Positions 1,178-30,438 of a DNA stretch of 64,000 bases are shown here, piece by piece (positions within the stretch are counted from its first letter, which is position 1; each line of letters starts with the position of its first letter). The DNA comes from Sphingobacteriales bacterium. Its GTDB lineage: Bacteria; Bacteroidota; Bacteroidia; Chitinophagales; UBA2359. The position numbers and the translations under genes were made by a program. Below the pieces are notes generated by a model. The model made no database searches. It was given only the letters and a program-made list of their open reading frames with translations, and was not told the origin of the DNA. Location of the stretch: positions 1,346,865-1,410,864 of the forward strand of contig CP064999.1 in the NCBI GenBank assembly GCA_016700115.1. Direction: 5' to 3'.

Positions 1178-3319
1178 CTACCGCACCACCGCCACCTTCC
1201 CCCGCGCCAAAACTGCACCGCCGCCATATCCGCCCTTGTCAGTGCCCCCGTTATTGCCATTGCCGCCGTTATTGCCGTTGTCGCCGTTGTCAGTGTCCCC
1301 ACTGACGACACCATCCGCACCACTCACAACATAAAAATACACCCCCACCGGCAAATGAGCAACCGAAAGGCTATGACTTGTCTGTCCTGCCGGAATGGTT
1401 GTGTGTAAAACTTGTTGACCGGTTGGGGAGAAGAGAGATATCTCTAAGACCCCTAAATCCCCTGAAGGGAACTTTGACCCTTCGGGTAGGGCAAAGGTTA
1501 TGGTGTTTGTGGCGGGGTTGGGATATACTACCACCCCTTGCCCCTCCGAAGGAGGGGAATTTTCAGGGATGCCCACCGGTTTTGCTATCGCTATTGTTTC
1601 GGTATAAACCGAAGTGTCCTGACACACGATAACTGTTAAGGTAACGGTAAAGTTGCCGTTGTCGGGGTAGGTGTGAACTGGGTGTTCTTCGGAAACCGGC
1701 GGGCTGCCGTCTCCGAAATCCCAGATGCAGTAGCCTCCTTGGGAGAAGTATGTGTTTTGGCTCAGGTTGGTGAACAACACGGTGTAATTTAATATTTCGT
1801 GACCGAAAGCTGCCTGCGGATTTGGCTCGAAATCTATGCACGCGGCACGGGTGAGAGTTGAAGTATCGTTGCAAACTATGGCTTGTAGGGTAACCGGGAA
1901 TAGCCCGGCGGACTGATAAGTATGAGTGGGCAGGCTGCCGCTGCAAGGTTCGTAGCCCTGACCACAAAGCAAGGGTGGGCTGCCGTCTCCCCAATCTAAA
2001 ATATAATGCCCCCCGTCTATACTGTCTGGATAAACATATTGACTTTGATTGGCAAAGGCTATGACATGGGGCATAGATAGATAAGGTAACGCTAAAAAAT
2101 CAGCCTTTGGCTCTGTAAGCAAACCCATGCAGTTTAAGCGCACCAACCAGGCGTCTGCCCCCCCTGAAGGTGCGCTACTTTCTGTTCTTCCACAAAGCAC
2201 ATAACCGCTTTTACCACTTTGGTCGTGGTTTTGGACTATGGCATCATAAACATAATCATCGCCATTTCCGCCAAATTGCCGTCGCCATAGTAAATTGCCC
2301 TCTTTATCTAACTTAACTATTTCGGCATCTAAATTGTATAAACCATTGTTCAAATAGAAACCATTAGCCAAAAAAAAGCTGCTGTCAGACAATTGAATTA
2401 AGGAAGGACCTATCCCACCTCTAAAGTATTGATCTTTTATCCATTCGGTTTGAAACTGGGCGTTGAGTTTGTGCGTGTAGCTTATGCGCGTGGAAATATC
2501 GGGTTTGTCTGCCACATAGCTAAACATGATGCCGCCATCGGAAGTGGAAATGATATTTCCTGCCACATCACGAGACATCCATGAAGAAGTAGTGGGATTA
2601 TATACCTGATGCCATTGCCAGTTGCCAAGAGAGTCTATTTTGATAAGGGCAATATCGCCAGTGTCACCAGCATAGTTGATAGTGGCAAGAAGATAGGCAC
2701 ATCCGTCGGGTGTGGCGGCTATATCTTGTATCCAGTTAGATTTATTAGTAGTGTTAAAGTAATAGTAAACTGTATCTAACATGACTTCGGCTGTGGTGGG
2801 GTATAGTTTAACTAATTGTAATCGCTTTCCTGGTGAGCTAATTTCGTTGTGATATCCCCCAACATATAATATGCCATTCGTACTTAAGGCAGATGTTATA
2901 CCATTATTGCTACTCCCTCCACCTCCAAACATAATATTTTCAAAATTACTATTGCTCTGAATTATTGATATGTTTAAATGCCAAGGCGTGTATTCATCAA
3001 CAGCTAAAGAACCAATAGCAATATAACTGCCTTGGAAAATTTCTAAATCTGTAAATTTCCCCTGTAAACTGTCCGGCGCTACACTTAATATAGAAACAAG
3101 ATTGCCTTCGGAATCTGTTTCTAATAAATATGGTTTCCATTTATTAGTCGTATTATTTCTTACTTCACATGAAAACGCATATCCACCATCTTCTTTTTGT
3201 TTAATGCTCCACGCATTATGAATATCCAACCAACTTACGCCTTTGCTAAAATACTTAGCGGGCTGTGCGTAGGAAAATAATGGAAGAACAATTAACCATA
3301 TTAACAATGACATTCTCAT
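1178..3319 (-). CDS. T9SS C-terminal-domain cargo protein A1 (beta-propeller-like N-half, two PKD-like GDGSPP modules, CTD with Gly/Asn-rich insert)
   Basis: Probable start at the internal MRMSLLIWLIVLPLFSYAQ signal peptide (the ORF track extends to 3379). The C-terminal ~330 aa are nearly identical to 3929..6061. The CTD is YPNPATNTITF...VAHLPVGVYFYVV...VLARGKVAVVR. Confidence 0.75.
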   Translation of the reverse strand: MRMSLLIWLIVLPLFSYAQPAKYFSKGVSWLDIHNAWSIKQKEDGGYAFSCEVRNNTTNKWKPYLLETDSEGNLVSILSVAPDSLQGKFTDLEIFQGSYIAIGSLAVDEYTPWHLNISIIQSNSNFENIMFGGGGSSNNGITSALSTNGILYVGGYHNEISSPGKRLQLVKLYPTTAEVMLDTVYYYFNTTNKSNWIQDIAATPDGCAYLLATINYAGDTGDIALIKIDSLGNWQWHQVYNPTTSSWMSRDVAGNIISTSDGGIMFSYVADKPDISTRISYTHKLNAQFQTEWIKDQYFRGGIGPSLIQLSDSSFFLANGFYLNNGLYNLDAEIVKLDKEGNLLWRRQFGGNGDDYVYDAIVQNHDQSGKSGYVLCGRTESSAPSGGADAWLVRLNCMGLLTEPKADFLALPYLSMPHVIAFANQSQYVYPDSIDGGHYILDWGDGSPPLLCGQGYEPCSGSLPTHTYQSAGLFPVTLQAIVCNDTSTLTRAACIDFEPNPQAAFGHEILNYTVLFTNLSQNTYFSQGGYCIWDFGDGSPPVSEEHPVHTYPDNGNFTVTLTVIVCQDTSVYTETIAIAKPVGIPENSPPSEGQGVVVYPNPATNTITFALPEGSKFPSGDLGVLEISLFSPTGQQVLHTTIPAGQTSHSLSVAHLPVGVYFYVVSGADGVVSGDTDNGDNGNNGGNGNNGGTDKGGYGGGAVLARGKVAVVR

Positions 3320-3385
3320 TTTAGTGAAATTAATTTTAAAGCCGGAGCTAAAATAACTCCGGCTATAAATGTTATACAATACTAA

Positions 3386-3850
3386 CTACTTAATCACAGA
3401 TAGTTTGCTGTTGCGGAAAACCGTACCATTTACGCTAAAAACACAGAAATATAAGCCGGTTTGAAAATTGCTTATATCAACATTTTGACTGGATTCGCCT
3501 ATAAAAACATAGTTACCCATTTCTTTGCCCATTAAAGAAAAGATTTGAAGTGTTCCTGTTTCTCCTGTTTGCAAATGATGACTAAAACTTACATTGTTTT
3601 GAGTTGGATTTGGATAAAGGGCAGATATCCTGTCCTGTCCGCCTTTAAACGAGCTATACCAGTTATCGCCTCCGCTTGCAAGGGCAGGCAACACTACCGG
3701 AAAATCTGTTCCCCGTGCGGCATATAAAATTGCTTGTGCCTTATAACTTGTCTTTGTCCCGCTTCCGGCTATTTCCAACAATTGTTCTTCTTCGGAATTT
3801 GTTATTGCAAATATGGTGCGGTTTCTTTGAGAGTCCATAATTTTCTGCAA
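3386..3850 (-). pseudogene. remnant/cassette: 154-aa T9SS CTD fragment paralogous to the C-terminus of the giant protein 6117..10958; no signal peptide
   Basis: The block SGTKTSYKAQAILYAARGTDFPVVLPALASGGDNWYSSFK is identical to the giant protein. It retains the YPNP...GLYF...KLSVIK CTD but lacks an N-terminal signal peptide. Confidence 0.5.
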
Positions 3851-3928
3851 TATGGTTTGGACAAAGATAATTGTTTTGATAATTGCCTGTATTTGCCAAA
3901 ACTATAAGGTTTAAACTCCAAATCAAAA

Positions 3929-6061: not shown

Positions 6062-6116
6062 TTTAGTTTATGAAATGCCACGCAATTTTTAATTGCGTGG
6101 CATTAATTTAAAGATG

Positions 6117-9100
6117 TTATTTAATGACTATAAACTTGTTATTAACAACCGGTTTTCCATTAATACTAACCGTATAAAAATACAAGCCTGAGGTGTATTT
6201 ATGAATATCCAACAGATAATTACCACTATGAGTAAATACAGTAGTTTCCAAAATCTGCCCTAAAGGACTATAAAAAGAAAATATTGCCTCTTCTCCTGTT
6301 TGCAATTCATAACTAATGGTTGCAGTATAGTTTGATGGGTTGGGATAAAGTGGCGATATTTTGCTATTTACACTTTTAAAGGAACTATACCAGTTATCGC
6401 CCCCGCTTGCCAAGGCAGGAAGCACCACCGGAAAATCTGTACCTCGAGCAGCATATAAAATTGCTTGTGCCTTATAGCTTGTCTTTGTCCCGCTTTCGGC
6501 TATGTCTAAAAGTAGGTCTTCTTCTGCCTGAGAGATTTCAAAAATAGTTCTGTTATCGGCACGCAGGTCTAAAAGCAGTTGGTTTAGCTCAGTAAATCGG
6601 ATGTCTTCCTCTTTATCAGCACTAATCTGGTCAAGCAGGTTCTGAGCTATGACAAGGCTATCAACGCCTATATAATAAGGGATAAGGCGGCGTTGGGCTA
6701 TAAGACTTGTATTATGCCGGCGCAACAAATCTATGGCTTCGGTATAGCTGCTATCTGCCAATAGGCGCAAAATTTCTTGCGCAAGGTCGCGGTCGTCCAT
6801 AATTTCCAATCCTACATATTCGCTTACATCTTCAAAGGGAGTATATCCTTGGTTTGAACAATAAGGATTTAAGTCAATGGGGTTACAATCAAACGCTGAA
6901 AAACCACCTAAAGAGGAGAGGTCTGTTACTGAGAGCGTAGTAGCATCTACATCGTAATATATGAGGGTTTCTACACCAAACCCACCGAAAAGTTCGGGAC
7001 CAAGTCTTACATCCGAAACGCCCATGCCTGCGGCAGCCATAAAGGTGTTGGCGGCTGGGATTTGGTCAAAATCATCACACAATCCTTGTTGTGGCAAGAT
7101 GCCATTGGAAGAGGAGAATGCCCGATGATCTAATCCGTGCAGGAGGTAATCTAAAAGGTGGTTGCACCATAGTTGTGCCTGTGAGTTGTCACCCTCTGTA
7201 ATGATAGCTTCCATGGTGTTGTTTACCAAATTACCGGCTATTAGTGTGCCAGTAACATCGCTTTGGTTGAGAATAATGCCAAAATGGGTGCGGTGCAAAA
7301 AGTTGTTTACACAATATACATTAGATCCTCGGAAGTAAAATCCGGCGGTAAGATCTGCAAAAGCGAGGATGCTGTTGCCGGTTTCGTTTACGATGTTGTC
7401 CGTTATTCTGCAAAACTCATTACCATCCACTTGTACTGAGAGTTGGCAGTCGGTAAACTCGTTGTCTGAAATAGTGCTGTACTGGGACATTAAGTCCTTA
7501 TAGTGTCTGGAAGAAATACCCACTACATCGTTTTCAAATTTGCTTCCGGAGACTACCAAACTGTTTATAAAATTAGCCCTTACTCCATACTTCTGTTTTT
7601 CGAAAAAACAATTGATGATGCCCACCCTGTCGCACCAATGGGCATAGATACCTGCTTCGGGTTGTGTGGTGATGGCATTAAAAGGGAACCAAAGCGTTGA
7701 GGATGGGTAGAGAAACTCATTATCCTGAAAAGTATAAGGCAACAAATTGTTCCAACTGACATTGATGCCTTGGAAACAACCGGTAAAGCTGGAGGAAATT
7801 ATGTTGAGCAAGCCACCTGATGTAGATTTGGCGGGAACATCTTCAAATAATGAAGGCAATACCAGCGAAGAAATGTTAAAATAAGGGTTATTGGGTGGCG
7901 AAATATCGGCCATTTCGGCATTGTTGAGCGGGGCTAAGTTCATATTGACAACACCTAATACGGCATTTTTCACGTGAGACTGTTCCATAGATAATTTACC
8001 CGCATTGTTAGAATTGGGTTGAATGTCCATGCCTGGTCCTTCTACCTGTATTCCTGTCCACATCACTTCACACACTCCGTCAATAATGGTATTCTTGAGA
8101 GCTAAAGTGGCACCGGGTTGTACTAAAATTCGTTTATCCGGGGCAAATAAGAGTTGCATACCGTCAATTGTCAGGTCTATTCCTTGCGGAATTACCAAGT
8201 CCACATTAAAGGAAATAACAGGCAAAGAGCCGGTAATACTGACAAAGGGGTGTGAACCGGGTTCCCATGTTTGAGAAGAGGAAGGTGCATAACTGATTCT
8301 ATCTTCACCATACTCGCTCAGGGTATATACTTCGGGATTACCGGTGTTTACGGTGAAGAAGTTGGTCATATCAAGGCAATCATAAGGAGGATCTATGGGG
8401 CCGCAGTCTATAATGGTTAGAACAACCTCCAATCCCTCGCTGTTTGGAAAAGTACAGTAAAGTTGATTGGTGGAAGCATCAACATTGGTAAGTTCCGCAG
8501 TAATAGTAACCTGTTGTCCGTCGGTAAAAGCTATACCCACTAATAGGTTGAGGTCAATCGTAATGCATGGATCGTCATAAGAAAGGGTAACTTCTGCTGT
8601 TCCTGTTTCGGTGAATAAGCCGCCCGGTATGACAGATATTCCGGGAATTGCGGACACATTGGTTTGAATTGTGGTATTGACGACACTCCCAATGTCGGAA
8701 TTTTCGAAGCAGAGGGTATATGGAATACTCACCGAAGTGCCTCGGCAAATTTCATCGGGATCGTCAGCAGCAATGTTCACTTTACCCTTACATTCTAAAT
8801 AGGCTTCGAGGTTGTCAATAACAAGGTATTGAGTCTGAATGTTTCCATCTACAAAATTACCAACAGAATTGTTTCCGGTAAGCAGTAAAGTTGTAATATC
8901 AAAACCGGTATTATTTGTCCATGTAAAAGTATAAAATGGCGTTTGGGTGAAATCTAGTGTACTGAGCGTTGGGTTGATTATAGAACTAAGTGGAGAACTT
9001 GTTACAATGGGATCTTGAAGTTCTATACCACAAGGTTCTGTGGTCATATTGAAATGATAAACAGGTGGCGTACAAATTGATGATGTCGGCGTTATACAAT

Positions 9101-10958
9101 TTATACTTTCATAAGGGAAAGCAGGGCATGGATAATCTGTAAGGGCAGTAATTAATAATGTTGGGGCAGCAGTAAGACCAGAAGCAGAGATGGTTTGCTG
9201 AAATGCAAATGCATTAAAACTGACCGTTACTGTGCACTGATCAGGTATAGGGTCAGAAAGTGGAATGCTTGCAGATTCTTTATGACAACCTGTACAGTCA
9301 ATCCAGCCTATACCTAAGACATTATTATCAGTGTTGGCAATTTTAACATCTGGGGTATTACCACTAAATAAATCAGAAAAAACAAAATTGTCAACACCAA
9401 GTCCAGGATAATAGTTTGAAGAGTTATCATCATTATCAGGAAAAGTTTCAAAGTCCTCAAAATCGCCAAAGCAAATAATATTGCAGTATGGATCGTAACA
9501 TTGAATTTCTACCGGACTATTATTAACCAACACAGTCACTTCTTCTATCTGACAGATTCCGTTGCAATTTTCAACTGTATAGCAAAACTTATAGATGCCG
9601 GGTTCGAATGCTTCAATTTCTATAGAGATCGGAAAGTTTGAAACATCAATGTCAAGGCTGCCAATATACATACAATCAAAGTCAAAGCTAAAAGGAGCGC
9701 CTACAGGTACGACATCGTTGGCAAGTAAGCTGGATATAGGTATAACAAGAGGATTGTTGGCATCTTCGCCTTCTAAATAGATTTGGTAGGTATCAGGGTT
9801 GGTGAAAACCTCACAGGGTTGATCGCAGTTTTCTACACCAGGTAGGTCTATAATATGGTAGCCCAATGCACAAAGGATGTGGAGTTCTGCATCGGTAAGT
9901 GTTCTTCTTATTTCTCCAGCACTGATTGCAGGGTGCATAACATAGTTCATTGTGCCGGTTATACCAATTTCATCTGCACAAGAATTATCCAAGTGAGACA
10001 ACTTATTAAGGAAAATATTTTCGCCTGAACCTCCCGAAAAATTGGAATAATTAGCCACATTCACTGGCGCTAAAATAACCTGATCGTCATTGCGAAAGGC
10101 AAGTTCTAATGGACACCCATAAGCAAAATCATTGGGCATATAGTCAAAGTCAATATCATTAAACTCATAAGCGTTGCAACATTCGGTTATTGGTGCATGG
10201 TAGATAAGTCGAGAATCCTCGACTACGGAATAAAGAAATCTGTCCCATTGCGAGTAAAATCCATTCATGGCTGCACCGGTTGTACTAATACGCGAACCAA
10301 AGCCCAAAATATGTAAGGCTTCGTGCAGGGCAACTGAATACAAATCGTAATTGTTGGGATTAATACCTAAATTAGGGTCTCCCGTATCATCCTCTGGATA
10401 TGTATGCCATTGCCATTGGTCGGGTTCATGTATCTGCATCAATCCCAAATACCCTTCAGGATATTCATCCACAAAAATATTGTTGAGTCGTTCTATTATC
10501 CTGCTGTCAGCAATTCCACATTCTGCTTCCCATACTGGAGATCCTGTACCCAATATACCATTATTTAAAGGTGTTTTTTCTATCAACAGATTTATAGATT
10601 CCCCTGAAGGGTTGTCTATCGCTGCCGACAAATCAAAAAATACCCGACAGATAGTTGCTTCCTCGTTAGGTGTCCAAGTGCCTATAAAGACTAGGTTAAA
10701 ATAACTATCTATGCACGTTAGTTTGTACGCACCCGAACCATCTCCCGGATATGGGAAACCATATTCAGTATATTCATTACCGAACCGGTCGTAAAATCGG
10801 GCTACTTGTCCATTTTCTAAAGGCGGCTTTACAATCACCCCGCAAAATTCAATCGGTGTTTGCCCCATTAACACATTACCCCCCCCCCCATATATATAGG
10901 GAAAGCAAAACAAACAAGACCATAGTTTTGCAAAGAAAGCTGTTCTGAAATTGAACAT
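6117..10958 (-). CDS. giant (1613 aa) T9SS cargo protein with zincin-like HEALHILGFG motif and beta-helix-like region; G11 tract at residues 24-27
   Basis: Long uninterrupted ORF. It contains an HExxH motif and a WTGIQVEGPG block shared with 24585..28067 and 62077... The T9SS CTD is ...YTSGLYFYTVSINGKPVVNNKFIVIK. A poly-G(11) tract encodes GGGG right after the signal-like N-terminus. Confidence 0.8.
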   Translation of the reverse strand: MFNFRTAFFAKLWSCLFCFPYIYGGGGNVLMGQTPIEFCGVIVKPPLENGQVARFYDRFGNEYTEYGFPYPGDGSGAYKLTCIDSYFNLVFIGTWTPNEEATICRVFFDLSAAIDNPSGESINLLIEKTPLNNGILGTGSPVWEAECGIADSRIIERLNNIFVDEYPEGYLGLMQIHEPDQWQWHTYPEDDTGDPNLGINPNNYDLYSVALHEALHILGFGSRISTTGAAMNGFYSQWDRFLYSVVEDSRLIYHAPITECCNAYEFNDIDFDYMPNDFAYGCPLELAFRNDDQVILAPVNVANYSNFSGGSGENIFLNKLSHLDNSCADEIGITGTMNYVMHPAISAGEIRRTLTDAELHILCALGYHIIDLPGVENCDQPCEVFTNPDTYQIYLEGEDANNPLVIPISSLLANDVVPVGAPFSFDFDCMYIGSLDIDVSNFPISIEIEAFEPGIYKFCYTVENCNGICQIEEVTVLVNNSPVEIQCYDPYCNIICFGDFEDFETFPDNDDNSSNYYPGLGVDNFVFSDLFSGNTPDVKIANTDNNVLGIGWIDCTGCHKESASIPLSDPIPDQCTVTVSFNAFAFQQTISASGLTAAPTLLITALTDYPCPAFPYESINCITPTSSICTPPVYHFNMTTEPCGIELQDPIVTSSPLSSIINPTLSTLDFTQTPFYTFTWTNNTGFDITTLLLTGNNSVGNFVDGNIQTQYLVIDNLEAYLECKGKVNIAADDPDEICRGTSVSIPYTLCFENSDIGSVVNTTIQTNVSAIPGISVIPGGLFTETGTAEVTLSYDDPCITIDLNLLVGIAFTDGQQVTITAELTNVDASTNQLYCTFPNSEGLEVVLTIIDCGPIDPPYDCLDMTNFFTVNTGNPEVYTLSEYGEDRISYAPSSSQTWEPGSHPFVSITGSLPVISFNVDLVIPQGIDLTIDGMQLLFAPDKRILVQPGATLALKNTIIDGVCEVMWTGIQVEGPGMDIQPNSNNAGKLSMEQSHVKNAVLGVVNMNLAPLNNAEMADISPPNNPYFNISSLVLPSLFEDVPAKSTSGGLLNIISSSFTGCFQGINVSWNNLLPYTFQDNEFLYPSSTLWFPFNAITTQPEAGIYAHWCDRVGIINCFFEKQKYGVRANFINSLVVSGSKFENDVVGISSRHYKDLMSQYSTISDNEFTDCQLSVQVDGNEFCRITDNIVNETGNSILAFADLTAGFYFRGSNVYCVNNFLHRTHFGIILNQSDVTGTLIAGNLVNNTMEAIITEGDNSQAQLWCNHLLDYLLHGLDHRAFSSSNGILPQQGLCDDFDQIPAANTFMAAAGMGVSDVRLGPELFGGFGVETLIYYDVDATTLSVTDLSSLGGFSAFDCNPIDLNPYCSNQGYTPFEDVSEYVGLEIMDDRDLAQEILRLLADSSYTEAIDLLRRHNTSLIAQRRLIPYYIGVDSLVIAQNLLDQISADKEEDIRFTELNQLLLDLRADNRTIFEISQAEEDLLLDIAESGTKTSYKAQAILYAARGTDFPVVLPALASGGDNWYSSFKSVNSKISPLYPNPSNYTATISYELQTGEEAIFSFYSPLGQILETTVFTHSGNYLLDIHKYTSGLYFYTVSINGKPVVNNKFIVIK

Positions 10959-12050: not shown

Positions 12051-12088
12051 AATTCCCCCCGATGTACCAACCTACGAAAACCGAAAGC
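12051..12088 (+). promoter_or_regulatory. conserved upstream motif copy (AATTCCCCCCGATGTACCAACCTACGAAAACCGAAAGC) 67 bp before ATG
   Basis: Same motif and spacing as 437..475. It is preceded by an (ATCGTAA)x3 heptamer run. Confidence 0.35.
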
Positions 12089-12688: not shown

Positions 12689-12705
12689 TCAAACTCTCAA
12701 CAAAC

Positions 12706-17745: not shown

Positions 17746-17840
17746 GGCTATTCATATTAACTCTTTCAGGTTTTTCACTTTTCACTTTTAGTTTTTCACT
17801 TTTTTGCTTTTCACTTTTAGTTTTTCACTTTTCACTATCT
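17746..17840. repeat. intergenic repeat family member (GTGAAAAGTGAAAAAC-type with CTGAAAG/ATATGAATAGCCATTGTTAA core)
   Basis: Reverse-complement match to units of the 130-bp tandem repeat at 50645..51010. A copy is also at 22735..22785, directly 3' of paralog B2. Confidence 0.7.
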
Positions 17841-19595: not shown

Positions 19596-19735
19596 GATTG
19601 TATTAGTTTTTGATGAACACTAAAGTTTGAGAATGATTTTTGACCTACTTCTTTAAGAAAAAAGAAGAATAAGAAAATAGAATTATCTAACCTGCCAAGC
19701 TCGAATTTAAACATGGCAGGTTAGATACAATAATA

Positions 19736-20428
19736 TTACTTTACGACCAAAATTTTACTGCTGCTTATTATTGCTCCGTTACTGGTAACCCGACAAAAAT
19801 ATAGCCCGTTTGGCCAATCGCTCATGGGTACGAATGTTTTACCGCTTTCTGTAACTGAAAGGCTGAATGTTAATTTGCCCAAGGCATCATATATGTTAAT
19901 GTCGGCGGTCGTTCTTGAAGGCAGGTTAGCGTTAATTTGTAGATACTCTGATGCCGGATTGGGCGTAATGCTGATGTTTGGAGCATCAAAAACACCGGTT
20001 TTAAACTGAATCGGCATCCCTTCCGTCAGGTCTTCGGGCAACGGGGGCAGTTCAACTATTATCTCTTCGCCATAAGCTAAATAGCGCAGCACTTTGGCAC
20101 TCATTGCTGAGGTGGTCTGACTTTGGGCAATCTGGCTCAAGAGGGCATCTTCTTCGGGGCTGAATTGTGTGTAGCTGCGGTTGTTTTGTGACATTTCTAT
20201 CTGCAAAGTCAACAATTGGCGGAAATGTTGATTGTCCAATCCCGTCTGCGGCAGGGTGTTACATATACTGTCTGCTTTGCTATACTGCCCTTGCTGCATA
20301 GACAGTGCAATTTTCATGCGTTTTGCAGTTTGAGTGTTAACACTTTCCAACAGCGACATGGCTTCAGCAGTATCGGAGGTTTCGGTCATGTAAAATAAAG
20401 TTTGGGTGGTGGTAAAAAATAATCGCAT
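19736..20428 (-). pseudogene. remnant/cassette: 230-aa C-terminal fragment paralogous to residues ~930-1160 of giant protein 24585..28067; no signal peptide
   Basis: Collinear with giant2 from ...YMAETSDTAEAMSLLESVNTQTAKRMKIALSMQQGQYS... through the T9SS CTD. Homology breaks exactly where the upstream repeat R abuts. Confidence 0.5.
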
Positions 20429-20577
20429 CTTCTTAGTTTTATCAATCGGCTAAGACAGGGTTTTGGGTTGCTTTACTTATTTTATTCCTTTTCACAGAAA
20501 AAAATCAGCTTAAAATCGCACTTTTTTTCATTTTTTTTGAAAAAAAGTTTTTTTGAGCATCAGATGCCTGCTTTTCT
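20416..20577. repeat. 162-bp direct repeat, left copy (candidate long target-site duplication of the IS1634-family element)
   Basis: AAAAATAATCGCATCTTCTTAG...CAGATGCCTGCTTTTCT is identical to 22427..22589, and the two copies immediately flank the IS inverted repeats. Confidence 0.75.
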
Positions 20578-22426: not shown

Positions 22427-22589
22427 AAAAATAATCGCATCTTCTTAGTTTTATCAATCGGCTAAGACAGGGTTTTGGGTTGCTTTACTTATTTTATTCC
22501 TTTTCACAGAAAAAAATCAGCTTAAAATCGCACTTTTTTTCATTTTTTTTGAAAAAAAGTTTTTTTGAGCATCAGATGCCTGCTTTTCT
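22427..22589. repeat. 162-bp direct repeat, right copy
   Basis: See 20416..20577. The sequence continues (22590..22640) into TAACGAAAAATAATTTACCTGGGTTGCCTGAAAC, which matches the third copy at 28210..28355. Confidence 0.75.
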
Positions 22590-22774
22590 TAACGAAAAAT
22601 AATTTACCTGGGTTGCCTGAAACTCTTTAAACATAGGATGTTTCTGAATCATCCTATGTTTTTGCTGATTGCCTGTATTTGTCAATCCTTATAGGTTTGC
22701 CAAACCTATAAGGATTTTAAACACTACCACCTTTCAGGGTTTTTCACTTTTCACTTTTAGTTTTTCACTTTTCA

Positions 22775-24508
22775 CTACCTAACCACCGCCACCTTCCCCC
22801 GCGCCAACACGCTCCCCAATTGCTCAACGGAATACAAATACACCCCCTCTTGCAAATGGGCTATTGAAATGGTTTTATGCGTTTCCCCAGCACCGAGAGT
22901 AGTTTGAAGCACGGTTTGACCGGTGAGGGAGAGGAGTTTTACCCCTAAATCCCCTGAAGGGGACTTTGACCCTTCGGGTAGGGCAAAGGTCAGCGTGTTT
23001 TGTGCGGGGTTGGGGTAAACTTGGATGAAGTTCTCACCCTTCAGGGGGTTGGGCGGCAGCCCCACCGCAATACCACTCCCCGAACGTGCATATACAAGCT
23101 GTTGGGTAACACTGGTATCGGAACAAACTATGGCGGTGAGGGTAACGAGGTAGTGGCCTTCTTCGGGATAGATGTGAGTGGGGTGGGTTGAGTTGCTGAC
23201 AGCCCCGTCGCCAAATTCCCAGATAAAATGCCCGCCGTCTATGCTGTCGGGATAAACGTATTGGCTTTGATTGAAGAAGGTGAACAATGCCGGCGGGGTG
23301 GTATCTTGCACGAATGTAAAATCTGCCTGCGGAAGACTGAGCAGCCCCATACAGTTGGTTTTGACAACCAACACATTGGCAGCACCGACCGGCTCGGTGC
23401 GGCCCACGCACAGAAAACCTCCATCGGGAGCAGGGTTAAAATCGTAAAAAAAATCGTTATTGGGTTCTGCGTCAAAATAGCGCACCCATAACGGTTCGCC
23501 ATCCGAACCTCTTACCTTCATAAGTAAGGCTTCTATTTTATCACTCGTTTGTCTTTTAGCACTTCCTATCATGATATAATTTTCTCCCAATTGATATATT
23601 TTGTCAAATACACTTTGTTGATAATCAGGGAAATACTGCCTTGTCCATAAGTTTTCTCCTGCTTTACTTATTTTTAAAAGCCTTGCATACTTGCCGGTTA
23701 CACCGGCAAGCATAATGCAAGAATCATTTGTAAATGTAAATGTACCGGCACCAGCTTTTTGACCTGCAAAATATGTGTTGAGATTAACGATATTCCCTTC
23801 AGGGTCAATACACATAAACAACATATCCGCATTCAAAGTATTGGGTATCAAATTTACACAACCTGTCGCATAACACCCACCGTCGGCAGTGGGAAGCAAG
23901 TCCAATATATAATTTCGATTGGAAAAGTTGTCGTAATATCTGCGCCAAACTATTTCACCATCTGTTATTTTGGTAATGACCAATCGGTAAGGTTCGGCTG
24001 CTGTTGTAAAGGCATTACCACCCAAATAATAGGTATTGGTTTCGGGGTAATATAACAAAGTGTAGCCATTTCCCTCATAAGGAGGATCGGGCAACTGAAA
24101 GTGATTTATTACCTCGCCGGCATGATTAACCTCTATAATGTATGGGTAGCTGTATATATCCCAAGGAAGCGTTTCATAAGGTTCGTTGTTCATCCACCCG
24201 CAAAAGGCATAACCAAATGGCGTAGTAATCAAATCTAACACCCCAAAAGTGCCAAAATCTTCGCCATAAGTCAACAGTGTTTGGTTTTCGGCATATTGAT
24301 CGGTAAAGAGTAAAAATGTTTTTTCTAATGATGTAGTCGTCAATGCTCCGCCACAACCTAAAACCAATAGCGTATCATTAATATAATATACTTTGTTTGA
24401 ACTCTGTCCATAACCCCAACCGATAGATTTTTCGAAATACTTTTCCTGTGCTGTCAGCCTAATACATCCATACAGACATAGACATATTATTATGATTAAT
24501 TGTTTCAT
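22775..24508 (-). CDS. T9SS C-terminal-domain cargo protein B2
   Basis: Probable start at MKQLIIIICLCLYGCIRLTAQ (the track ORF extends to 24562). Paralog of B1. Confidence 0.75.
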   Translation of the reverse strand: MKQLIIIICLCLYGCIRLTAQEKYFEKSIGWGYGQSSNKVYYINDTLLVLGCGGALTTTSLEKTFLLFTDQYAENQTLLTYGEDFGTFGVLDLITTPFGYAFCGWMNNEPYETLPWDIYSYPYIIEVNHAGEVINHFQLPDPPYEGNGYTLLYYPETNTYYLGGNAFTTAAEPYRLVITKITDGEIVWRRYYDNFSNRNYILDLLPTADGGCYATGCVNLIPNTLNADMLFMCIDPEGNIVNLNTYFAGQKAGAGTFTFTNDSCIMLAGVTGKYARLLKISKAGENLWTRQYFPDYQQSVFDKIYQLGENYIMIGSAKRQTSDKIEALLMKVRGSDGEPLWVRYFDAEPNNDFFYDFNPAPDGGFLCVGRTEPVGAANVLVVKTNCMGLLSLPQADFTFVQDTTPPALFTFFNQSQYVYPDSIDGGHFIWEFGDGAVSNSTHPTHIYPEEGHYLVTLTAIVCSDTSVTQQLVYARSGSGIAVGLPPNPLKGENFIQVYPNPAQNTLTFALPEGSKSPSGDLGVKLLSLTGQTVLQTTLGAGETHKTISIAHLQEGVYLYSVEQLGSVLARGKVAVVR

Positions 24509-24584
24509 TTTACAGTAGATTTTACCATCGTATTGGCGGCTAATATTAATATTAGCCGCCAATACGATGGAGGATTAACAAATA

Positions 24585-27500
24585 TTACTTGGATACTAAT
24601 ATTTTACCGGTAGAAAGCAGGTGTCCGTTTTGCACTAAGCGGTAGAAGTAGATGCCGTTTGTCCAGTCCTCAATACTGAGTTGCAGGTTGCCGGTTTGAG
24701 ATACTGCTTGGCGATAGACACGTTTGCCCGTTGTGTTGTATATTTCTAAATCTGCCAATGTTTTGTCTGGCAGACGATACTGTATCTGTAATTGTGTGGC
24801 GGCGGGATTAGGTGCAATGCTAATTAAACTGGAATTTGCCTCTCTGGTTTTAAACTGTATGGGCATTCCTTCCGTCAGGTCTTCGGGCAGCGGGGGCAGT
24901 TCTACCAATATGTCTTCGCCGTAAGCTAAATAGCGTAGTACTTTGGCACTCATTGCCGAGGTAGTCTGACTTTGAGCAATCTGACTTAACAGGGCATCTT
25001 CTTCAGGGCTGAATTGGGTGTAGCTTCGGTTGGTTTGTGCCAACGCTATCTGCAAAGACAATAACTCACGGAAATATTGATTGTCCAATCCCGTCTGTGG
25101 CAGAGTGTTACATATACTGTCTGCTTTGCTATACTGCCCTTGCTGCATAGACAGTGCAATTTTCATGCGTTTTGCAGTTTGAGTGTTAACACTTTCCAAC
25201 AGCGACATGGCTTCAGCAGTATCGGAGGTTTCGGCCATATAATGCCAGAATTTTTGTACCAACAAACGGTCTGCCTGTTTTTCGTCTGTCATTTCGGCTA
25301 TCTCTTCTTTGGGTATTTCCTGCCAGGTTTCACAATCTACGGTTTCACCGGCACTCCAACACGGCACCAAAGTTACCACCCCGCCTGCGGCATTGCTGAC
25401 ACTGGGAGTTAGTGGGGATATTGGCCGGTGTACATAATCGAAATTGTCGTTTATCACCGAGCGGATATCTACCAAAGTAGAGTTGATAAAGAGGTTGTCA
25501 GCGGGTTCATCAACTAATGGTGGCAAAAAATAACACTCCCCCTGATCGTCTAGTTCACCTGCAACCGGGGTAGTGCTATCATCAATCAGATATATGGCAA
25601 CATATTGTTCATAAAATTGGTTGCAATAGATATAAGTGCCATCGTTGTCGCCAATCATCCAGGCGCCGAGAAAATTGTCGGTAAAAATGTTTTCGTGGGC
25701 GATATTTGTTTCGTGGTCACTGTTCATAATGACCAAACCTGCCGTTACATGACTGATGTCGTCGTTATAGATATTGAAGCGTGACTGCACGGAGGCTATG
25801 CCATAGGAAGGCGAGCTGTATCCAAAGCCCGTGATGGTGTTTTGACTGGTTACAAGACGGTTGCCGAGTGTTTGGGCGGCAAAGACACAATTGGTAAACG
25901 TATTTGAATTTAAGAAAGTGGACAACAGGGTAAAAGTAAAGGTGCCGGCAGACGACATGCCGACCGCACAGTCGGAAAAATCATTGTTGTTAAAAACCCA
26001 ACTTGATATTTCAAAACCCCTTGCGCCAAACTTGGAAGTGGTAAAATTGTTTCCGTTCAAGACTAAGCGATGGTAGTCTTCGCCATAAATACCTGCTTCG
26101 GAATCGAAAAATGTTGTACCCGAGAGAACATTGAAGGGATATAAAACTAAAGGTGCTCCCCAAAACTTAACCGTATTTATGTAGGTAACGGCTGAGGGAA
26201 TGGGGGTGTTTGTGTTTACATACCAACTCAAATTAACACCCTGAAAACATTCGAATATATAACCCTCGTCTAACTGAATAACCCCTCCGGCAGTATTGAC
26301 AGCCGATGCGGAATTGGTGCTTGGTTTCAACAATAACGGCGTAAGCGTTGGGCAGTTTGTATCAAAAGGATCGTCGCATAACAGATAAGGATGGGTTTGT
26401 AGTTCATCGGCTATATTGGCAATATCTATCATGGGCACAAACATGCCGGCAATGCCGATCAGGGCACTTTGCAATTTCAGGTCATCACAAATATACCCTT
26501 CCAATTTACCGTAATTGGGCAACGCATCGGGCATAATCGCCCGTAAAACAGTCTTTCCGGGTCCCAAAACCCTGATGCCCTGCCACATGCTGCAAACAGG
26601 TTTCAACTCAACCCCTTTATTGAAGGTCAAAACAGCACCTTGCTCTACGATTATTCTTCCGCGAGGGCCGAAGTTTATATTTAATCCGGTACCGCTTGAG
26701 CCGGTAAATCCCATAACAATATGGATGCCTCTCGGAATAATGATATCGGTATTGACCAAAAATGGAACGGCAGTACCACCAAAAACTGTTTTCAATTCAT
26801 TGCTTGCATCTGTCCATGTGCCCGAAACGGTTACGGTATAGGCCATATTGTCATAAACGAGTGATAGCCCCGATGAATTCTGGTCTATGCGAAACGCGGT
26901 TTCATGCAAACAGCATTGAAAATCTTCTTGAGACAATATTTCCGTGATTTCAAGCGGCGGCTCCGGTGGTTCGGGGCAACAATCTGCTGGAGCATTTATT
27001 TTAATTATAACAAAATCATCAATACAATTACTGCTGGTTTCGTGTTCAAAAACGGCATAGTTGGGGTTGTTTGCCAATGAACGGATAAGCCTGTACCAGG
27101 TTGGTTGAACTGGGTAAACGGTTATTTCGGGTTGAGTTTCAGACATTGGTAGCCATGTAAAGCCGTAATTGGTCGAATATTCCCAAGTAAACTGCAAATC
27201 GGTCATAAGGTCGCAATGCCACCCTATAGCAATTCCGTTTTCAGCCTGTTCGCAGGAAGCATTTATTTCTGTATTTATATCCATAAAGTCATCTTCTATC
27301 AGGTGAACTTGGTCAATATAAGCAAAAATCAATTCGTGGCAGTCGTCTTGTTGCGGGTAAATGTATAGTGTGTTCCAAGTTTTTTCGGGAGTGAAGCATT
27401 GGAATACTTTTTGCCAGTTGGTGATGGTTATACTGGTTTCATGTAGCACGTTTTCAAAGTTCGCAGGGTCTGGCTGTAAGTAATGATCGGTGTTCCACGT

Positions 27501-28067
27501 AATTTCGTCCCAATTAGTAAGTTTGATGTACATATTATCCAATTCGTTGGTAAAGGGTCCTGAATATCCGGCATAAGTTCCTACACATTCTCCCGGTGGC
27601 ATTAAAAACTCAGATCCGTCACCAACAAAATCACCACCTCCCGGATCACAATACAACAATATTCTCCTTAAATAGCTCATTATATATGGCGTTCCGCTCT
27701 GTAAATCTACCTCTGCCATAATGCCTTCACCCCGTTGGCAACATTCTGCCGGTTCGTCCACTTCGTTATCGGTTGCCCACATTCTTATCTGTGTATCGTC
27801 CGTTGGAGTATCATTCACATCACTAAAATCGGGAGAACCATAAATATTTCTCCATCCCGGAAAGTTGTAACAAGTAGTAGGGGGGGTAGTTGCAAATTTC
27901 ATTTGCTCCCAAGACAAACAATCATAATCATTTATACTGGCTGCAACAATACATGAAGGCGGAATAACTAACTCCGGATTGCAAAGCAACATACAATTAG
28001 CTGCCGGAGTACAATAGTCATCCGGCCATGTGCCTTGGGCTAAGAGGTGGTTTACCCCCCCCCCCAT
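24585..28067 (-). CDS. giant (1160 aa as read) T9SS cargo protein; 5' end lies in a G11 tract, and an upstream out-of-frame signal peptide begins at 28130
   Basis: Long ORF with the beta-helix-like WQGIRVLGPG block and a canonical T9SS CTD (...WTNGIYFYRLVQNGHLLSTGKILVSK). The ATG sits inside ATGGGGGGGGGGG. The frame MKTNQNPFFRFVAIVCISLIFNGGGG starting at 28130 is +1 relative to the body. Confidence 0.75.
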   Translation of the reverse strand: MGGGVNHLLAQGTWPDDYCTPAANCMLLCNPELVIPPSCIVAASINDYDCLSWEQMKFATTPPTTCYNFPGWRNIYGSPDFSDVNDTPTDDTQIRMWATDNEVDEPAECCQRGEGIMAEVDLQSGTPYIMSYLRRILLYCDPGGGDFVGDGSEFLMPPGECVGTYAGYSGPFTNELDNMYIKLTNWDEITWNTDHYLQPDPANFENVLHETSITITNWQKVFQCFTPEKTWNTLYIYPQQDDCHELIFAYIDQVHLIEDDFMDINTEINASCEQAENGIAIGWHCDLMTDLQFTWEYSTNYGFTWLPMSETQPEITVYPVQPTWYRLIRSLANNPNYAVFEHETSSNCIDDFVIIKINAPADCCPEPPEPPLEITEILSQEDFQCCLHETAFRIDQNSSGLSLVYDNMAYTVTVSGTWTDASNELKTVFGGTAVPFLVNTDIIIPRGIHIVMGFTGSSGTGLNINFGPRGRIIVEQGAVLTFNKGVELKPVCSMWQGIRVLGPGKTVLRAIMPDALPNYGKLEGYICDDLKLQSALIGIAGMFVPMIDIANIADELQTHPYLLCDDPFDTNCPTLTPLLLKPSTNSASAVNTAGGVIQLDEGYIFECFQGVNLSWYVNTNTPIPSAVTYINTVKFWGAPLVLYPFNVLSGTTFFDSEAGIYGEDYHRLVLNGNNFTTSKFGARGFEISSWVFNNNDFSDCAVGMSSAGTFTFTLLSTFLNSNTFTNCVFAAQTLGNRLVTSQNTITGFGYSSPSYGIASVQSRFNIYNDDISHVTAGLVIMNSDHETNIAHENIFTDNFLGAWMIGDNDGTYIYCNQFYEQYVAIYLIDDSTTPVAGELDDQGECYFLPPLVDEPADNLFINSTLVDIRSVINDNFDYVHRPISPLTPSVSNAAGGVVTLVPCWSAGETVDCETWQEIPKEEIAEMTDEKQADRLLVQKFWHYMAETSDTAEAMSLLESVNTQTAKRMKIALSMQQGQYSKADSICNTLPQTGLDNQYFRELLSLQIALAQTNRSYTQFSPEEDALLSQIAQSQTTSAMSAKVLRYLAYGEDILVELPPLPEDLTEGMPIQFKTREANSSLISIAPNPAATQLQIQYRLPDKTLADLEIYNTTGKRVYRQAVSQTGNLQLSIEDWTNGIYFYRLVQNGHLLSTGKILVSK

Positions 28068-28209
28068 TAAAAATTAAACTAATGCAAACAATCGCTACAA
28101 AGCGGAAAAACGGGTTTTGGTTTGTTTTCATACAAAAATAAAAGTTTTGGTTTAAAATTCTGCATCATCTTAAGTTTATCTTTCTCTCAGGAAAGAGTTT
28201 ATCTGGTGC

Positions 28210-28355
28210 CTTACTTATATTATTCCTTTTCACAGAAAAAAATCAGCTTAAAATCGCACTTTTTTTCATTTTTTTTGAAAAAAGTTTTTTTTAACATCAA
28301 ATGCCTGTTTTTGTTAACGAAAAATAATTTACCTGGGTTGCCTGAAACCGGATCT
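28210..28355. repeat. third copy of the ~150-bp upstream element R (5' region of giant2)
   Basis: CTTACTTATATTATTCCTTTTCACAGAAAAAAATCAGCTTAAAATCGCACTTTTTTTCATTTTTTTTGAAAAAAG... matches the repeats flanking the IS. Confidence 0.7.
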
Positions 28356-28398
28356 GTCGGGGATATATTGTACCCCCCAATAATGCTTGTCAACGGTC

Positions 28399-30438
28399 TC
28401 AGACGGAATATGGGTTGGGGATTTTTATTTCATAAAAAGCACTTGCCCACTTTGGCGGTTGGGGAGCTTCTCTTTCTTGTACAGGCAACAGGGCAGATTC
28501 TCTTGTTTCGGTTACAGGTGGCGGAAGAGCATCCTGATCGAAACTTTTGAGTGAAACGGACTTATCACTCACCACCAATAAAAATCCGAGCATGGCATTT
28601 GGGTAATTATAGTGCTTGATAAAGGCATCCTGCACAAAGTTTATCCATTCTGTACGTCCGCCACCGGGCAGGGGTACGGAAGCATAAACCGTAGCTCCCG
28701 GAAATAACGTAACGGAGGTTTCCGACAAAGTATCGGTAAACACATCGAACAGTTGCCCCAGATAAACCAAAGAACAAAAAAACACCTTAAAAGACGAAGG
28801 ATTGGTCAGGGCAATTTTTAAGGCACCCGAAGGCAGTTTGGTCAGGCTTTCTTTGGGAGGCACCTGGGCGTAGTTAACGACACCCCTGTTTTTGGGATCG
28901 AAAACAACCGGCTGTTCGTTTCCCGAAGAGGTTTTGAAATAAACTTTGAGGGTGATGTCTTTAGGAGAAATAAACGCTGAGGGAGCGTCGTTTTGAAAAC
29001 CCTTGATATAATTCCATCGGGCAATATGCTTTAAATAGCTGAAAACCGCATGTGCCGATGCCTCGTTAAAACCTTCAACCTGCCGGGCAACGGGTAGTTT
29101 ATGGGCATTGTAAACCAACTCATATTGGTTGTTTTTAGCAATAATCCGGTAAGCATTCAGGATATTTCCGCGGTTGGTTGCAAAAACGTTGGCGTGATGC
29201 AGTCCTTGTTTATGCTTGTTATAGTATTGGGCAAGTTGTTGCACTCCCGAATTTTCACCGGACATGGTAAAAAGCAAAGGTACGGAAAACAGGTTTCTGA
29301 CAACGGCCGGGTAGGTTTTGGATTTATCCAATCCGGAGCTGCTTTCAAATTTAAGGTTGGAATGACTGGCAAATACTTCAGAAATTTGTGCCGATGCGAG
29401 CACTGTTTTACTTTCTGCATCGAGAATATCCACTTTTACCTTATCGAGGCCAAAGGTCAGGATTCCGTGAATAGCCCCAAGCCCTAATTGCCAAACAGTC
29501 TTGTAAGGGTGATAATTGACACTGCCCTGAACAGGTTCTCCTTCTACCAATCCGCCCAAAAAACGCTGATACAAAACAGCAGGAGACTGGTTCAACGGGG
29601 TTTGCTTGTTCTGTTCCACCGCATAAATTTGCGGAATTTGCCGTACAGAATTTCCGTCGGCATCCTGATACCAAACATCTGAAACAGACATCAGCCGGTT
29701 ATACAAATCCTGATAGGTGATATTGCCGGAAGATTGTTGCAGCACCTCGATCAGTTTGCCGGTAAAAACACTGCCTTCTTCAAAGGCAAAAGCCAACTGA
29801 TTGGCTTCACAAGCAGCAAAATGAATATGATCGCCCTGTGGCAACACCTTATCTAATGATGACGCAGCAAGTGCCTGTGCTTCGGTTATTTCATTGGCAA
29901 AGATATACTCATGCCATTTTCGCTGACCAAAACGTTGACCCGATTTCGATTGGTTCGGCAATTGCTTCACCATTGCGCGGTTTCCACGGGTAATATCACC
30001 CGAATGACAACAATCGGTAATCACTACTACATGCGGTTTTTGTCCCGAAATCTTCTTAATCAGATACCGCAACTCTTTATCGGCCAAACCATTCACGTTA
30101 AAAAAGTCATGGCAAACTAATGTTTCGATGGCCTCATCTGTTTCTGTTTGCTTAAAAGCAGCATGAGCTCCTTCCAGAGTACCATGTCCTGAAAAATAAA
30201 ACAGGGCGACATCGCCTTCCCCTGCCTGCCCTAAATGTTGTAAAAAGGCGTTGACAATTGCATTTTTTGTAGCCTGTGAATCTGTCAGCATTTTTACTTT
30301 CAGCGTTGCCCTTGTGCGGGCAGATGCTTCTTCAAGAAAAGTTTTTATATTGTTGGCATCATTCACACAACCGGACAGCGCAGAAGATGTTTGATACTGA
30401 TTGATGCCGACCAATAAGGCATAGATGGTTTTAGCCAT
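28399..30438 (-). CDS. caspase-family (peptidase C14) protein with ~430-aa C-terminal region of unknown function
   Basis: The N-terminus YALLVGINQYQ...LSGCVNDA, the catalytic His in FSGHGT and the Cys in ITDCCHSGD form a caspase/orthocaspase His-Cys dyad arrangement. Confidence 0.7.
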   Translation of the reverse strand: MAKTIYALLVGINQYQTSSALSGCVNDANNIKTFLEEASARTRATLKVKMLTDSQATKNAIVNAFLQHLGQAGEGDVALFYFSGHGTLEGAHAAFKQTETDEAIETLVCHDFFNVNGLADKELRYLIKKISGQKPHVVVITDCCHSGDITRGNRAMVKQLPNQSKSGQRFGQRKWHEYIFANEITEAQALAASSLDKVLPQGDHIHFAACEANQLAFAFEEGSVFTGKLIEVLQQSSGNITYQDLYNRLMSVSDVWYQDADGNSVRQIPQIYAVEQNKQTPLNQSPAVLYQRFLGGLVEGEPVQGSVNYHPYKTVWQLGLGAIHGILTFGLDKVKVDILDAESKTVLASAQISEVFASHSNLKFESSSGLDKSKTYPAVVRNLFSVPLLFTMSGENSGVQQLAQYYNKHKQGLHHANVFATNRGNILNAYRIIAKNNQYELVYNAHKLPVARQVEGFNEASAHAVFSYLKHIARWNYIKGFQNDAPSAFISPKDITLKVYFKTSSGNEQPVVFDPKNRGVVNYAQVPPKESLTKLPSGALKIALTNPSSFKVFFCSLVYLGQLFDVFTDTLSETSVTLFPGATVYASVPLPGGGRTEWINFVQDAFIKHYNYPNAMLGFLLVVSDKSVSLKSFDQDALPPPVTETRESALLPVQEREAPQPPKWASAFYEIKIPNPYSV

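Follow-up and report, generated by a model that had tools for sequence, protein, structure and literature searches.

A 64,000-nt stretch of contig CP064999.1 from a Sphingobacteriales bacterium (hereafter the window) contains two giant genes whose products end in the C-terminal domain (CTD) of type IX secretion system (T9SS) cargo, and near each of them a short open reading frame (ORF) that resembles the end of the giant only. We were interested whether these short ORFs are silent cassettes for surface variation, decaying remnants, or a maintained class of their own. The best explanation is that the two loci belong to a lineage-restricted T9SS cargo family built of two-gene units, of which there are at least six, four of them in the window. 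With a probability of about 0.65 for this explanation as a whole, we favour a birth-and-death multigene family in which gene conversion is confined to conserved arms, the giants are switched by poly-G slippage, and the short ORFs (minis) are recurrent and probably selected.

Organization of the two loci

The window was taken from a 5,966,411-bp contig of a metagenome-assembled genome (MAG; 5.97 Mb). An ORF map located eight ORFs, all on the minus strand, at the coordinates given by a first-pass annotation of the sequence, and the gene order described there for both loci was recovered. It reads G1 - A2 - F1 - A1 in locus 1 and R' - G2 - B2 - R2 - IS - R1 - F2 - B1 in locus 2, with G for the giants, F for the minis (fragments), A and B for the partner genes, R for copies of the giant upstream region and IS for an insertion sequence. 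The features are as follows (dS, synonymous divergence; UTR, untranslated region).

Locus 1
6117..10958, minus strand: G1 (QQS30251), giant T9SS cargo of 1613 aa, with signal peptide, G11 tract, HExxH region, beta-helix, H module and CTD; in frame (ON) as assembled
10879..10889, minus strand: poly-G tract of G1, 11 nt, at the signal-peptide/mature junction; 8 G in the same-strain metagenome contig L012
3929..6061, minus strand: A2, partner protein of 710 aa, with signal peptide, variable N-half, PKD domain and CTD
3386..3838, minus strand: F1 mini ORF (QQS30249), 150 aa from the ATG, with H module (3626-3838) and CTD, without signal peptide; the ORF reaches a TTG at 3850
1178..3319, minus strand: A1, partner paralogue of 713 aa; last ~260 codons (about 1178-1960) 97-100% nt-identical to A2, N-half saturated

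Locus 2
28148..28348, minus strand: R', upstream (5' regulatory) region of G2, 83-87% identical to R1 and R2
28018..28131, minus strand: signal-peptide ORF of G2 (MKTNQNPFFRFVAIVCISLIFNGGGG...), which passes the G11 tract in the other frame and meets a stop 12 codons on; with 10 or 13 G it would be continuous with the main ORF
28055..28065, minus strand: poly-G tract of G2, 11 nt, in the OFF configuration
24585..28067, minus strand: G2 main ORF, 1160 aa, starting MGGGVNHLLAQ, with beta-helix, H module and CTD; without signal peptide as assembled
22775..24508, minus strand: B2, partner protein with signal peptide, variable N-half, PKD domain and CTD
20415..20577, minus strand: R1, copy of the giant upstream region directly 5' of F2
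19736..20428, minus strand: F2 mini ORF (QQS30259), 230 aa, or 217 aa from the ATG at 20389, with H module (19985-20392) and CTD; the ATG is the 5'UTR/Met944 junction
17835..19595, minus strand: B1 (QQS30258), partner paralogue of 586 aa; codons ~340-484 (18144-18578) 91-99% identical to B2, N-half saturated, CTD with dS about 0.6

Searches with Pfam and NCBIfam placed the Por_Secre_tail/TIGR04183 CTD (PF18962 / TIGR04183) above curated cut-offs in 8/8 ORFs. PKD domains were additionally found in A1, A2, B1 and B2, a NosD-type beta-helix in the giants, and an HExxH motif in G1. Signal peptides were assessed by eye and by hydropathy: A1, A2, B1, B2 and G1 have typical hydrophobic N-termini, and no hydrophobic core was seen in the N-termini of F1 (MDSQRNRTIF...) and F2 (MRLFFTTTQTLFYMTETSD...). 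The fragments have indeed kept the CTD and lost the signal peptide, as had been noticed in the first-pass annotation. The N-terminal Sec signal peptide of T9SS type A cargo is missing from F1, from F2 and also from G2 as assembled, so that the earlier description of both giants as full-length genes holds for the in-frame G1, whereas G2 has lost its signal peptide by a frameshift in G11. F1 and F2 are both intact ATG-initiated ORFs and are annotated as coding sequences in the MAG.

Architecture of the units

A full unit consists of a giant (signal peptide, poly-G, HExxH/beta-helix body, a conserved helical H module of ~70 aa, type A CTD), a hairpin, and a partner gene whose product has a signal peptide, a variable N-half, PKD and CTD. 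What the fragments have in common with the giants is solely the ~70-aa H module and the CTD. G1 and G2 share merely 26% identity; the H motif NR[ST]..[FL]..[IL][ST]..EE..LL..IA.S.T..A..A..L.Y.A.G....V.LP is common to both types. Between fragment and giant, H is 80-100% nt-identical (dN<=0.1 for F2/G2, dN being nonsynonymous divergence) and is followed by a saturated CTD. No Pfam, NCBIfam or PHROGs match was obtained for the H module, for the 177-aa repeat ORF or for the first IS ORF described below.

An AlphaFold model of F1 (46 sequences; predicted local distance difference test, pLDDT, 85) showed a helical hairpin and, after an extended linker, a canonical CTD beta-sandwich. The modelled CTD has pLDDT >95 and matches the solved T9SS CTDs 8qb1 and 8glk_D, and no informative structural match was found for the helical hairpin. 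For F2, whose alignment had 5 sequences, the model was not good enough for interpretation (pLDDT 61).

In 5/5 relatives the type of the CTD co-varied with the type of N-half in the next gene: the g1-type CTD pairs with an A2-like N-half and the f1-type CTD with an A1-like N-half. From this co-variation the architecture can be described as two homogenised arms around a linked diverged block that spans the gene boundary. Type A CTDs are cleaved off by the PorU sortase on secretion. One may speculate that H interacts with the partner C-half, each of them being membrane-proximal once anchored; such an interaction would explain the uniformity of exactly these two segments within the genome.

Poly-G tracts in the giants

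In both giants a run of 11 G directly follows the hydrophobic signal-peptide core. This run is in frame in G1 (…YIYGGGGNVLMGQT), and in G2 the signal-peptide ORF (MKTNQNPFFRFVAIVCISLIFNGGGG…) lies in one frame and the 1160-aa body (MGGGVNHLLAQGT…) in another. These two runs are the sole G/C homopolymers of >=8 nt in the 64 kb, with 0.002 expected for each. At the DNA level the tract was detected at the same position in seven family genes, five of them beyond the window giants, with lengths of 8, 9 or 11 G; three genes are ON and four OFF, and a TAA follows each run:

Window G1: 11 G, ON
L012, G1 orthologue: 8 G, ON
Window G2: 11 G, OFF
L016, P0052: 9 G, OFF
L017/L018 (two independent assemblies), P0038: 8 G, OFF
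L019, P0077: 9 G, ON
L020 (same metagenome as L019), P0105: 8 G, OFF

Over 7,196 bp, contig L012 is distinguished from the window solely by one single-nucleotide polymorphism (SNP) and the 3-nt tract indel (99.94% identity, same strain). Several giants from the census described below are called from 'MGG…' and have no signal peptide. The main protein of G2 was not found in the protein collection searched, which is consistent with a pseudogene call, and a protein search with the N-terminal 300 aa of the ON version of G2 returned no match, not even itself.

A homopolymer of >=8 nt in the 5' coding region far above chance, a length that is polymorphic between samples and the occurrence of both ON and OFF frames make these giants, by strong inference from the sequences, candidate slipped-strand contingency loci. 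Length changes within G8-11 would put the signal peptide in or out of frame and would switch each giant, and real-time surface variation would come from this slippage, not from the fragments. As in the simple sequence repeat (SSR) contingency loci of Neisseria, Haemophilus, Campylobacter and Helicobacter, whose repeats are homopolymeric G/C tracts, a homopolymeric G run lies in the 5' coding region of genes for surface or secreted proteins, its length varies between samples, both frames are seen, an OFF frame meets an immediate stop, and several genes per genome are involved. In contrast to these, the host is an environmental member of the Bacteroidota from apparently engineered or environmental metagenomes, the cargo is T9SS-secreted, the tract lies exactly at the signal-peptide/mature junction across a diverged family, and the system is known here from sequence alone.

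Duplication and deletion junctions

By blastp, F1 residues 10-154 correspond to G1 1469-1613, its last 145 residues (57% identity), and F2 residues 13-230 to G2 943-1160, its last 218 residues (72% identity), while A1 and A2 are 65.5% and B1 and B2 62% identical. Self-blastn aligned 1178-2314 with 3929-5056 (91.5%), 17800-18623 with 22740-23539 (85%), 19997-20393 with 24846-25242 (91%) and 3560-3793 with 6291-6524 (80%). The collinearity of F1/G1, F2/G2, A1/A2 and B1/B2 bears out the earlier proposal that units of giant and partner were duplicated and that one giant was truncated.

At locus 2, R had been reported to abut F2 exactly where collinearity with G2 begins. The junction is real, with the difference that about 37 nt more of giant-5'UTR homology stand between R and the ATG of F2. 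The collinear part starts at this ATG, which aligns with both the giant start context and the internal Met944 of G2:

F2: TTTTAC ATG ACCGAAACC
G2, internal: CATTAT ATG GCCGAAACC
G2, 5' end: TTTTGT ATG AAAACAAACC

On these alignments, F2 is an in-frame deletion product that keeps the giant 5' region. Other junctions were seen in two minis of relatives: P0008 has kept the signal peptide and a decayed G-run (ATGGGGGTGAGGGTGGGT), and P0010 the signal peptide and about 60 further residues. At locus 1 no R-like region is retained, and only 78 nt lie between the A2 stop and F1; they contain, in degraded form, a copy of the hairpin element that follows B2.

A third locus in the same genome (QQS29475-29478), about 780 protein accessions away and compared at the protein level, contains two more short forms. 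QQS29475 (P0002, 231 aa) has the MRLFF..MTET junction of F2 together with a G2-like CTD; QQS29477 (P0012, 230 aa) is 91% identical to F2 and shares its junction; and QQS29478 (P0016) is B1-like. The F1 junction recurs in a related strain on contig L006, which matches window 4168-3606 at 91% identity across the end of the A gene, the junction and H. The first-pass annotation had counted just two independent events; more truncated copies than two exist, because the third-locus short forms share the F2 junction and the related strain shares that of F1. The F2-type truncation occurred once, and the unit was copied afterwards. Units have been duplicated in tandem and dispersed, and deletions fuse the giant 5' end to a point just upstream of H, leaving mini ORFs of 150-230 aa (H and CTD).

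Mosaic divergence and gene conversion

dN and dS were calculated by the Nei-Gojobori method in windows along the pairs. Self-blastn and the dS windows agree with the first-pass annotation that A1/A2 and B1/B2 combine near-identical 3' parts with strongly diverged, here saturated, 5' parts. For A1/A2, dS is saturated over codons 1-385 and then falls from 0.8 to 0.0 toward the 3' end; for B1/B2 it lies at 0.03-0.14 in codons 360-484 and at about 0.6 in the CTD, with saturation upstream of both. F2 and G2 are 100% nt-identical over codons 16-45, reach a dS of about 0.9 by codon 120 and are saturated in the CTD. F1 and G1 share a 42-residue core that is amino-acid-identical at a dS of about 0.5, again with a saturated CTD.

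Exchange was assessed with a synonymous-only max-chi2 test, restricted to codons that encode the same amino acid, with permutation p values. The share of such codons that differ was 46% on the 5' side versus 4% on the 3' side for A1/A2 (p<=0.002; longest identical run 201 nt), 53% versus 17% for B1/B2 (p<=0.002; 150 nt) and 19% versus 69% for F2/G2 (p<=0.002; 130 nt). For F1/G1 the shift from 31% to 67% did not reach significance (p about 0.06), the longest identical run being 26 nt. The 130-nt identical tract joins F2 20256-20385 to G2 25105-25234. At the protein level, 'ALSMQQGQ' is exclusive to F2 and G2, and 'YFRELLSLQI' is exclusive to G2 and P0012 from the third locus. P0016 and P0017 are 100% identical for 480 aa and about 50% in the CTD, a pattern that reads as a clean CTD swap.

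The mosaic, judged from synonymous sites, reflects different coalescence times and not merely different constraint. Interlocus gene conversion, including exchange between fragment and giant, is well supported by these sequence data, because dS drops to 0-0.1 in defined tracts, the max-chi2 test is significant and the protein-level signals are incongruent; the gene-conversion mosaic proposed by the first-pass annotation is thereby upheld for A1/A2, B1/B2 and F2/G2. The strongest conversion tracts join the full-length paralogues A1/A2 and B1/B2, each with its own signal peptide. Conversion repeatedly homogenises the two arms, H and the partner C-half, and the block between them (giant or mini CTD, spacer, partner N-half) stays anciently diverged and linked. 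Two near-identical metagenome contigs, L001 and L012, contained no alternative junctions or conversion tracts over 9.5 kb, the only differences being 2 SNPs and the G-run indel.

Mosaic divergence has been modelled for concerted evolution by interlocus conversion in tandem multigene families (bioRxiv 10.1101/2025.10.29.685298). The window resembles such families in its patchy paralogue identity, in sharp changes of dS, in homogenised segments beside anciently diverged ones, and in birth-and-death with truncation. Unlike in these, the arms lie in two adjacent genes (the upstream tail and the downstream C-half), and the diverged block extends across the gene boundary.

A census of minis

An H-only profile built from window sequences was searched against 1.84 billion representatives. 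It returned 112 clusters; in nearly all of them H lies some 150 residues before the C-terminus. Minis (<=400 aa) made up 55/112 H-module clusters and all start with Met, about eight of them with a signal-peptide-like N-terminus. A Pfam-detectable CTD was kept in 44/46 minis, though the query held none. Where the context is known, an A/B-like gene follows each mini, and one precedes it wherever upstream sequence exists. The nearest neighbour of a mini was another mini in just 34% (p=0.89), and minis were interspersed with giants; by this sequence clustering, the minis are a class that arises repeatedly or exchanges sequence and not an old separate clade.

The dN/dS ratio in H is 0.06-0.10, and a binomial test against a neutral fragment with a fully constrained giant gave p=1.5e-5 for F2 and 0.002-0.008 for F1. 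Among F1-type minis the CTD has an omega (dN/dS) of 0.17-0.24 at dS>1. Although the F1 and F2 CTDs are saturated when compared with the resident giants, their scores with the CTD model equal or beat those of the giants' own CTDs. Copies with the same junction exist in this genome (P0002, P0012) and in a related strain (P0009), and such minis are free of stops at 73% (F2 vs P0002) and 55% (F1 vs P0009) identity. These patterns argue that the fragments are mostly not decaying. The first-pass annotation had named stops or frameshifts in relatives, with no exchange with the full-length copies, as what would refute its cassette idea; in the relatives the fragments are intact, and they do exchange sequence, so that the idea withstands this particular test.

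The minis would be by-products of the birth-and-death process that stay intact partly via conversion from giants and probably also by selection on a translated H-CTD product. Since they mostly have no signal peptide, they cannot be ordinary T9SS cargo. From the census and the substitution patterns, H-CTD minis seem to be recurrent, long-lived and probably selected.

In scans for further loci, the metagenome contigs gave one IS-disrupted locus, and the genome contigs the P0003 contig only. In one metagenome relative (L013, 311-1885) H is directly followed by a 524-aa transposase-like ORF on the opposite strand, an independent IS hit at the H/CTD boundary.

Alternative explanations

According to the first-pass annotation, the fragments would be silent partial cassettes that convert expressed giants or partners, so that T9SS surface proteins are diversified in a manner similar to antigenic variation. 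The exchange between F2 and G2 is real (130-nt identical run, dS gradient), G2 shares different tracts with F2 and P0012, and the fragments are intact in relatives; moreover, the giants resemble contingency genes, so the locus seems to be under pressure to vary. As in the silent-cassette systems (Neisseria pilE/pilS, Borrelia vlsE, Treponema tprK, Anaplasma msp2), partial copies lie beside full-length genes and segments are exchanged. Unlike in these systems, the partial copies cover the conserved or cleaved part only and not the variable exposed segment, the copies are few, and the exchange is essentially synonymous. The fragments lack any giant body and hold no surface-exposed variable information, because the part that they share is the conserved H plus a CTD that is removed on secretion; only these could be donated, and exchanges within H are nearly all synonymous. 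F2 is probably not a promoterless cassette, since the giant upstream region and start codon are kept; it has an R of ~200 nt, 5'UTR homology and an in-frame ATG. One to three fragments per giant type do not amount to a cassette archive, no invertase or other dedicated recombinase is encoded within the window, and two same-strain samples were free of alternative junctions and tracts over 9.5 kb. The antigenic-variation reading is not supported for the fragments, and we consider it very improbable. Shufflon-type inversion was rejected as well, as all paralogues are in direct orientation by self-blastn.

The layout of full-length gene, partner, orphan tail and partner also fits a swap of orphan cassettes as in Rhs/CdiA systems, in which H and the partner C-half would serve as arms to recombine an alternative block of CTD, spacer and partner N-half behind a phase-variable giant, changing the coupled partner variant. 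Two conserved arms do flank an anciently diverged block whose parts co-vary in 5/5 relatives, and the same type of block was found behind a giant (G1, L012) and behind minis (L006, L014). Rhs/CdiA loci likewise have a full-length giant and a downstream gene, then 5'-truncated tails each with its own partner gene, and the tails keep a conserved homology stretch (here H) immediately upstream of a divergent C-terminus. The differences are that the variable C-terminal piece is a bona fide T9SS sorting domain and no toxin, that the partner is a secreted PKD and CTD protein of 586-713 aa and not a small immunity protein, and that no PAAR, VENN or PxxxxDPxGL-type demarcation motif is present. Both partners have their own signal peptide and each spacer its hairpin, so both are probably expressed and there is no obvious gain from a swap, and conversion confined to well-conserved stretches gives the same pattern passively. 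We consider such swapping quite unlikely. Somewhat less so, and still unlikely, is a two-layer system in which poly-G switching of the giants is combined with an archive of mini/partner-N-domain cassettes recombined via the arms, or with minis acting as selected modulators of T9SS cargo handling.

The favoured reading of recurrent, probably selected minis has its most serious competitor in functionless giant remnants that look healthy as they are young or have been overwritten by conversion, and that will eventually be deleted. Minis are polyphyletic and often closest to a giant (up to 87-91% identity), most have no signal peptide, the H core of P0009 is degenerating, one IS sits in front of F2 and another interrupts the L013 family member, and F2 bears a recent conversion tract from or to G2. 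On the other side, the CTDs of F1 and F2 are saturated against the resident giants and hence not refreshed by them, and still score better on the CTD model; the CTD omega of the F1-type minis is low at dS>1; minis with the same junction have diverged to 73% and 55% identity without stops; the CTD is intact in 44/46 diverse minis; and the deletions are in frame with the start codon retained. With the fragments intact in relatives and a low dN/dS in H, the plain decaying remnants offered as an alternative by the first-pass annotation are poorly supported, and we regard the remnant explanation in general as possible, albeit doubtful.

Several points weigh against our interpretation of a switched family with selected minis. 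The low dN/dS of the minis may be imported from functional donor giants by conversion, and P0009 has about 10 substitutions at otherwise invariant positions of its H core, which looks relaxed. As most minis have no signal peptide, their CTD would be useless on the canonical T9SS route, and the H census itself favours sequences with intact H. F1 may have originated by deletion from a full copy or by partial tandem duplication. As for the switch, G-run lengths are known from assembled sequences alone. The IPM47_ locus-tag series presumably comprises long-read assemblies; if the window MAG was assembled from long reads, both G11 lengths could be miscalled. The four OFF cases include short-read-style assemblies.

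Implications for T9SS cargo families

T9SS cargo families are large and poorly understood beyond a few model species, and in Bacteroidota the known cases of phase variation mostly involve invertible promoters and shufflons. In the literature searched, nothing relevant was found on SSR phase variation of T9SS cargo or on gene conversion of CTDs. Homopolymer phase variation and concerted evolution are both already-known processes; three things seem to be undescribed in this literature, namely the co-occurrence of the two in a family of T9SS cargo from uncultured Bacteroidota, a tract conserved at the signal-peptide junction, and the widespread class of H-CTD minis. If true, a homopolymer switch in a whole family of giant T9SS cargo would extend contingency-locus biology to Bacteroidota that are free-living and uncultured; the driver there would probably be pressure from phages or predators, not from an immune system. 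Annotation pipelines would call such giants pseudogenes or start them at 'MGG...', as was apparently the case for G2 and several census giants, and would name H-CTD minis 'T9SS sorting domain proteins'; the pattern described here aids the interpretation of both. The mosaic is also a clean natural case of interlocus conversion limited to conserved arms that span a gene boundary.

Intergenic elements and neighbouring genes

The remaining elements of the two loci are:

6074..6104, minus strand: perfect 14-bp stem-loop in the G1-to-A2 spacer, z -5.3
3851..3928, minus strand: A2/F1 inter-unit spacer, which contains a degraded copy of the hairpin element present downstream of B2
3340-3366: stem-loop in the F1-to-A1 spacer
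24525..24570, no strand assigned: perfect 46-bp palindrome in the G2-to-B2 spacer, z -8.7
22427..22589, minus strand: R2, 163-bp copy of the giant upstream region, 100% identical to R1
20578..22426, plus strand: IS element inserted in R, where 163 bp of the target are duplicated; its DDE_Tnp_1 transposase is broken up over three ORFs, and its terminal inverted repeats are perfect over 18 bp
19684..19727, minus strand: stem-loop with U-rich tail in the F2-to-B1 spacer, z -6.1

A strong and perfect stem-loop (14-21 bp, z -4.4 to -8.7) occurs in every spacer between a giant or mini and its partner. The four are unrelated in sequence and occupy the same position; they may be terminators or processing/attenuation sites. 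R1 and R2 flank the IS and are identical over their full 163 bp, both being 83-87% identical to R'. A target duplication of 163 bp far exceeds usual target-site duplications and leaves F2 with an intact copy of the upstream region.

The spacer between an AlkZ-like gene and the B1 3' end contains a perfect (CAATTAA) array of 43.6 copies (17441-17745, 100% matches). The array belongs to a composite element of intergenic DNA (GTGAAAA repeats ... AATAGCCATTGTTAATTG...), which is found again at 50667-51004, at 22729-22774 and, in L014, downstream of an A-like gene. A ~0.7-kb repeat on the plus strand (437-1142, 11235-11549, 12050-12757, 13251-13964; copies 84-93% identical) codes for a protein of 177 aa that carries a signal peptide and matches no family. 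Its direct copies lie on both sides of locus 1, with a tandem array of ~1.2-kb period upstream of G1, and could mediate loss or duplication of the whole locus.

The upstream region of G2 adjoins a gene for a 679-aa caspase-like protein (28399-30438; Peptidase_C14, EACC1-associated type). Further along, a 1685-aa ORF (37844-42901) with a weak sacsin-domain match below the Pfam cut-off is followed by an OmpA-family gene and then a 432-aa gene, in a region of low GC (38-46 kb, 0.35-0.38). A degenerate 21-bp tandem repeat with an 84-bp super-period (45189-45481; about 14 copies, 69% matches) overlaps the upstream region or the inside of a 510-aa ORF (45911-47443).

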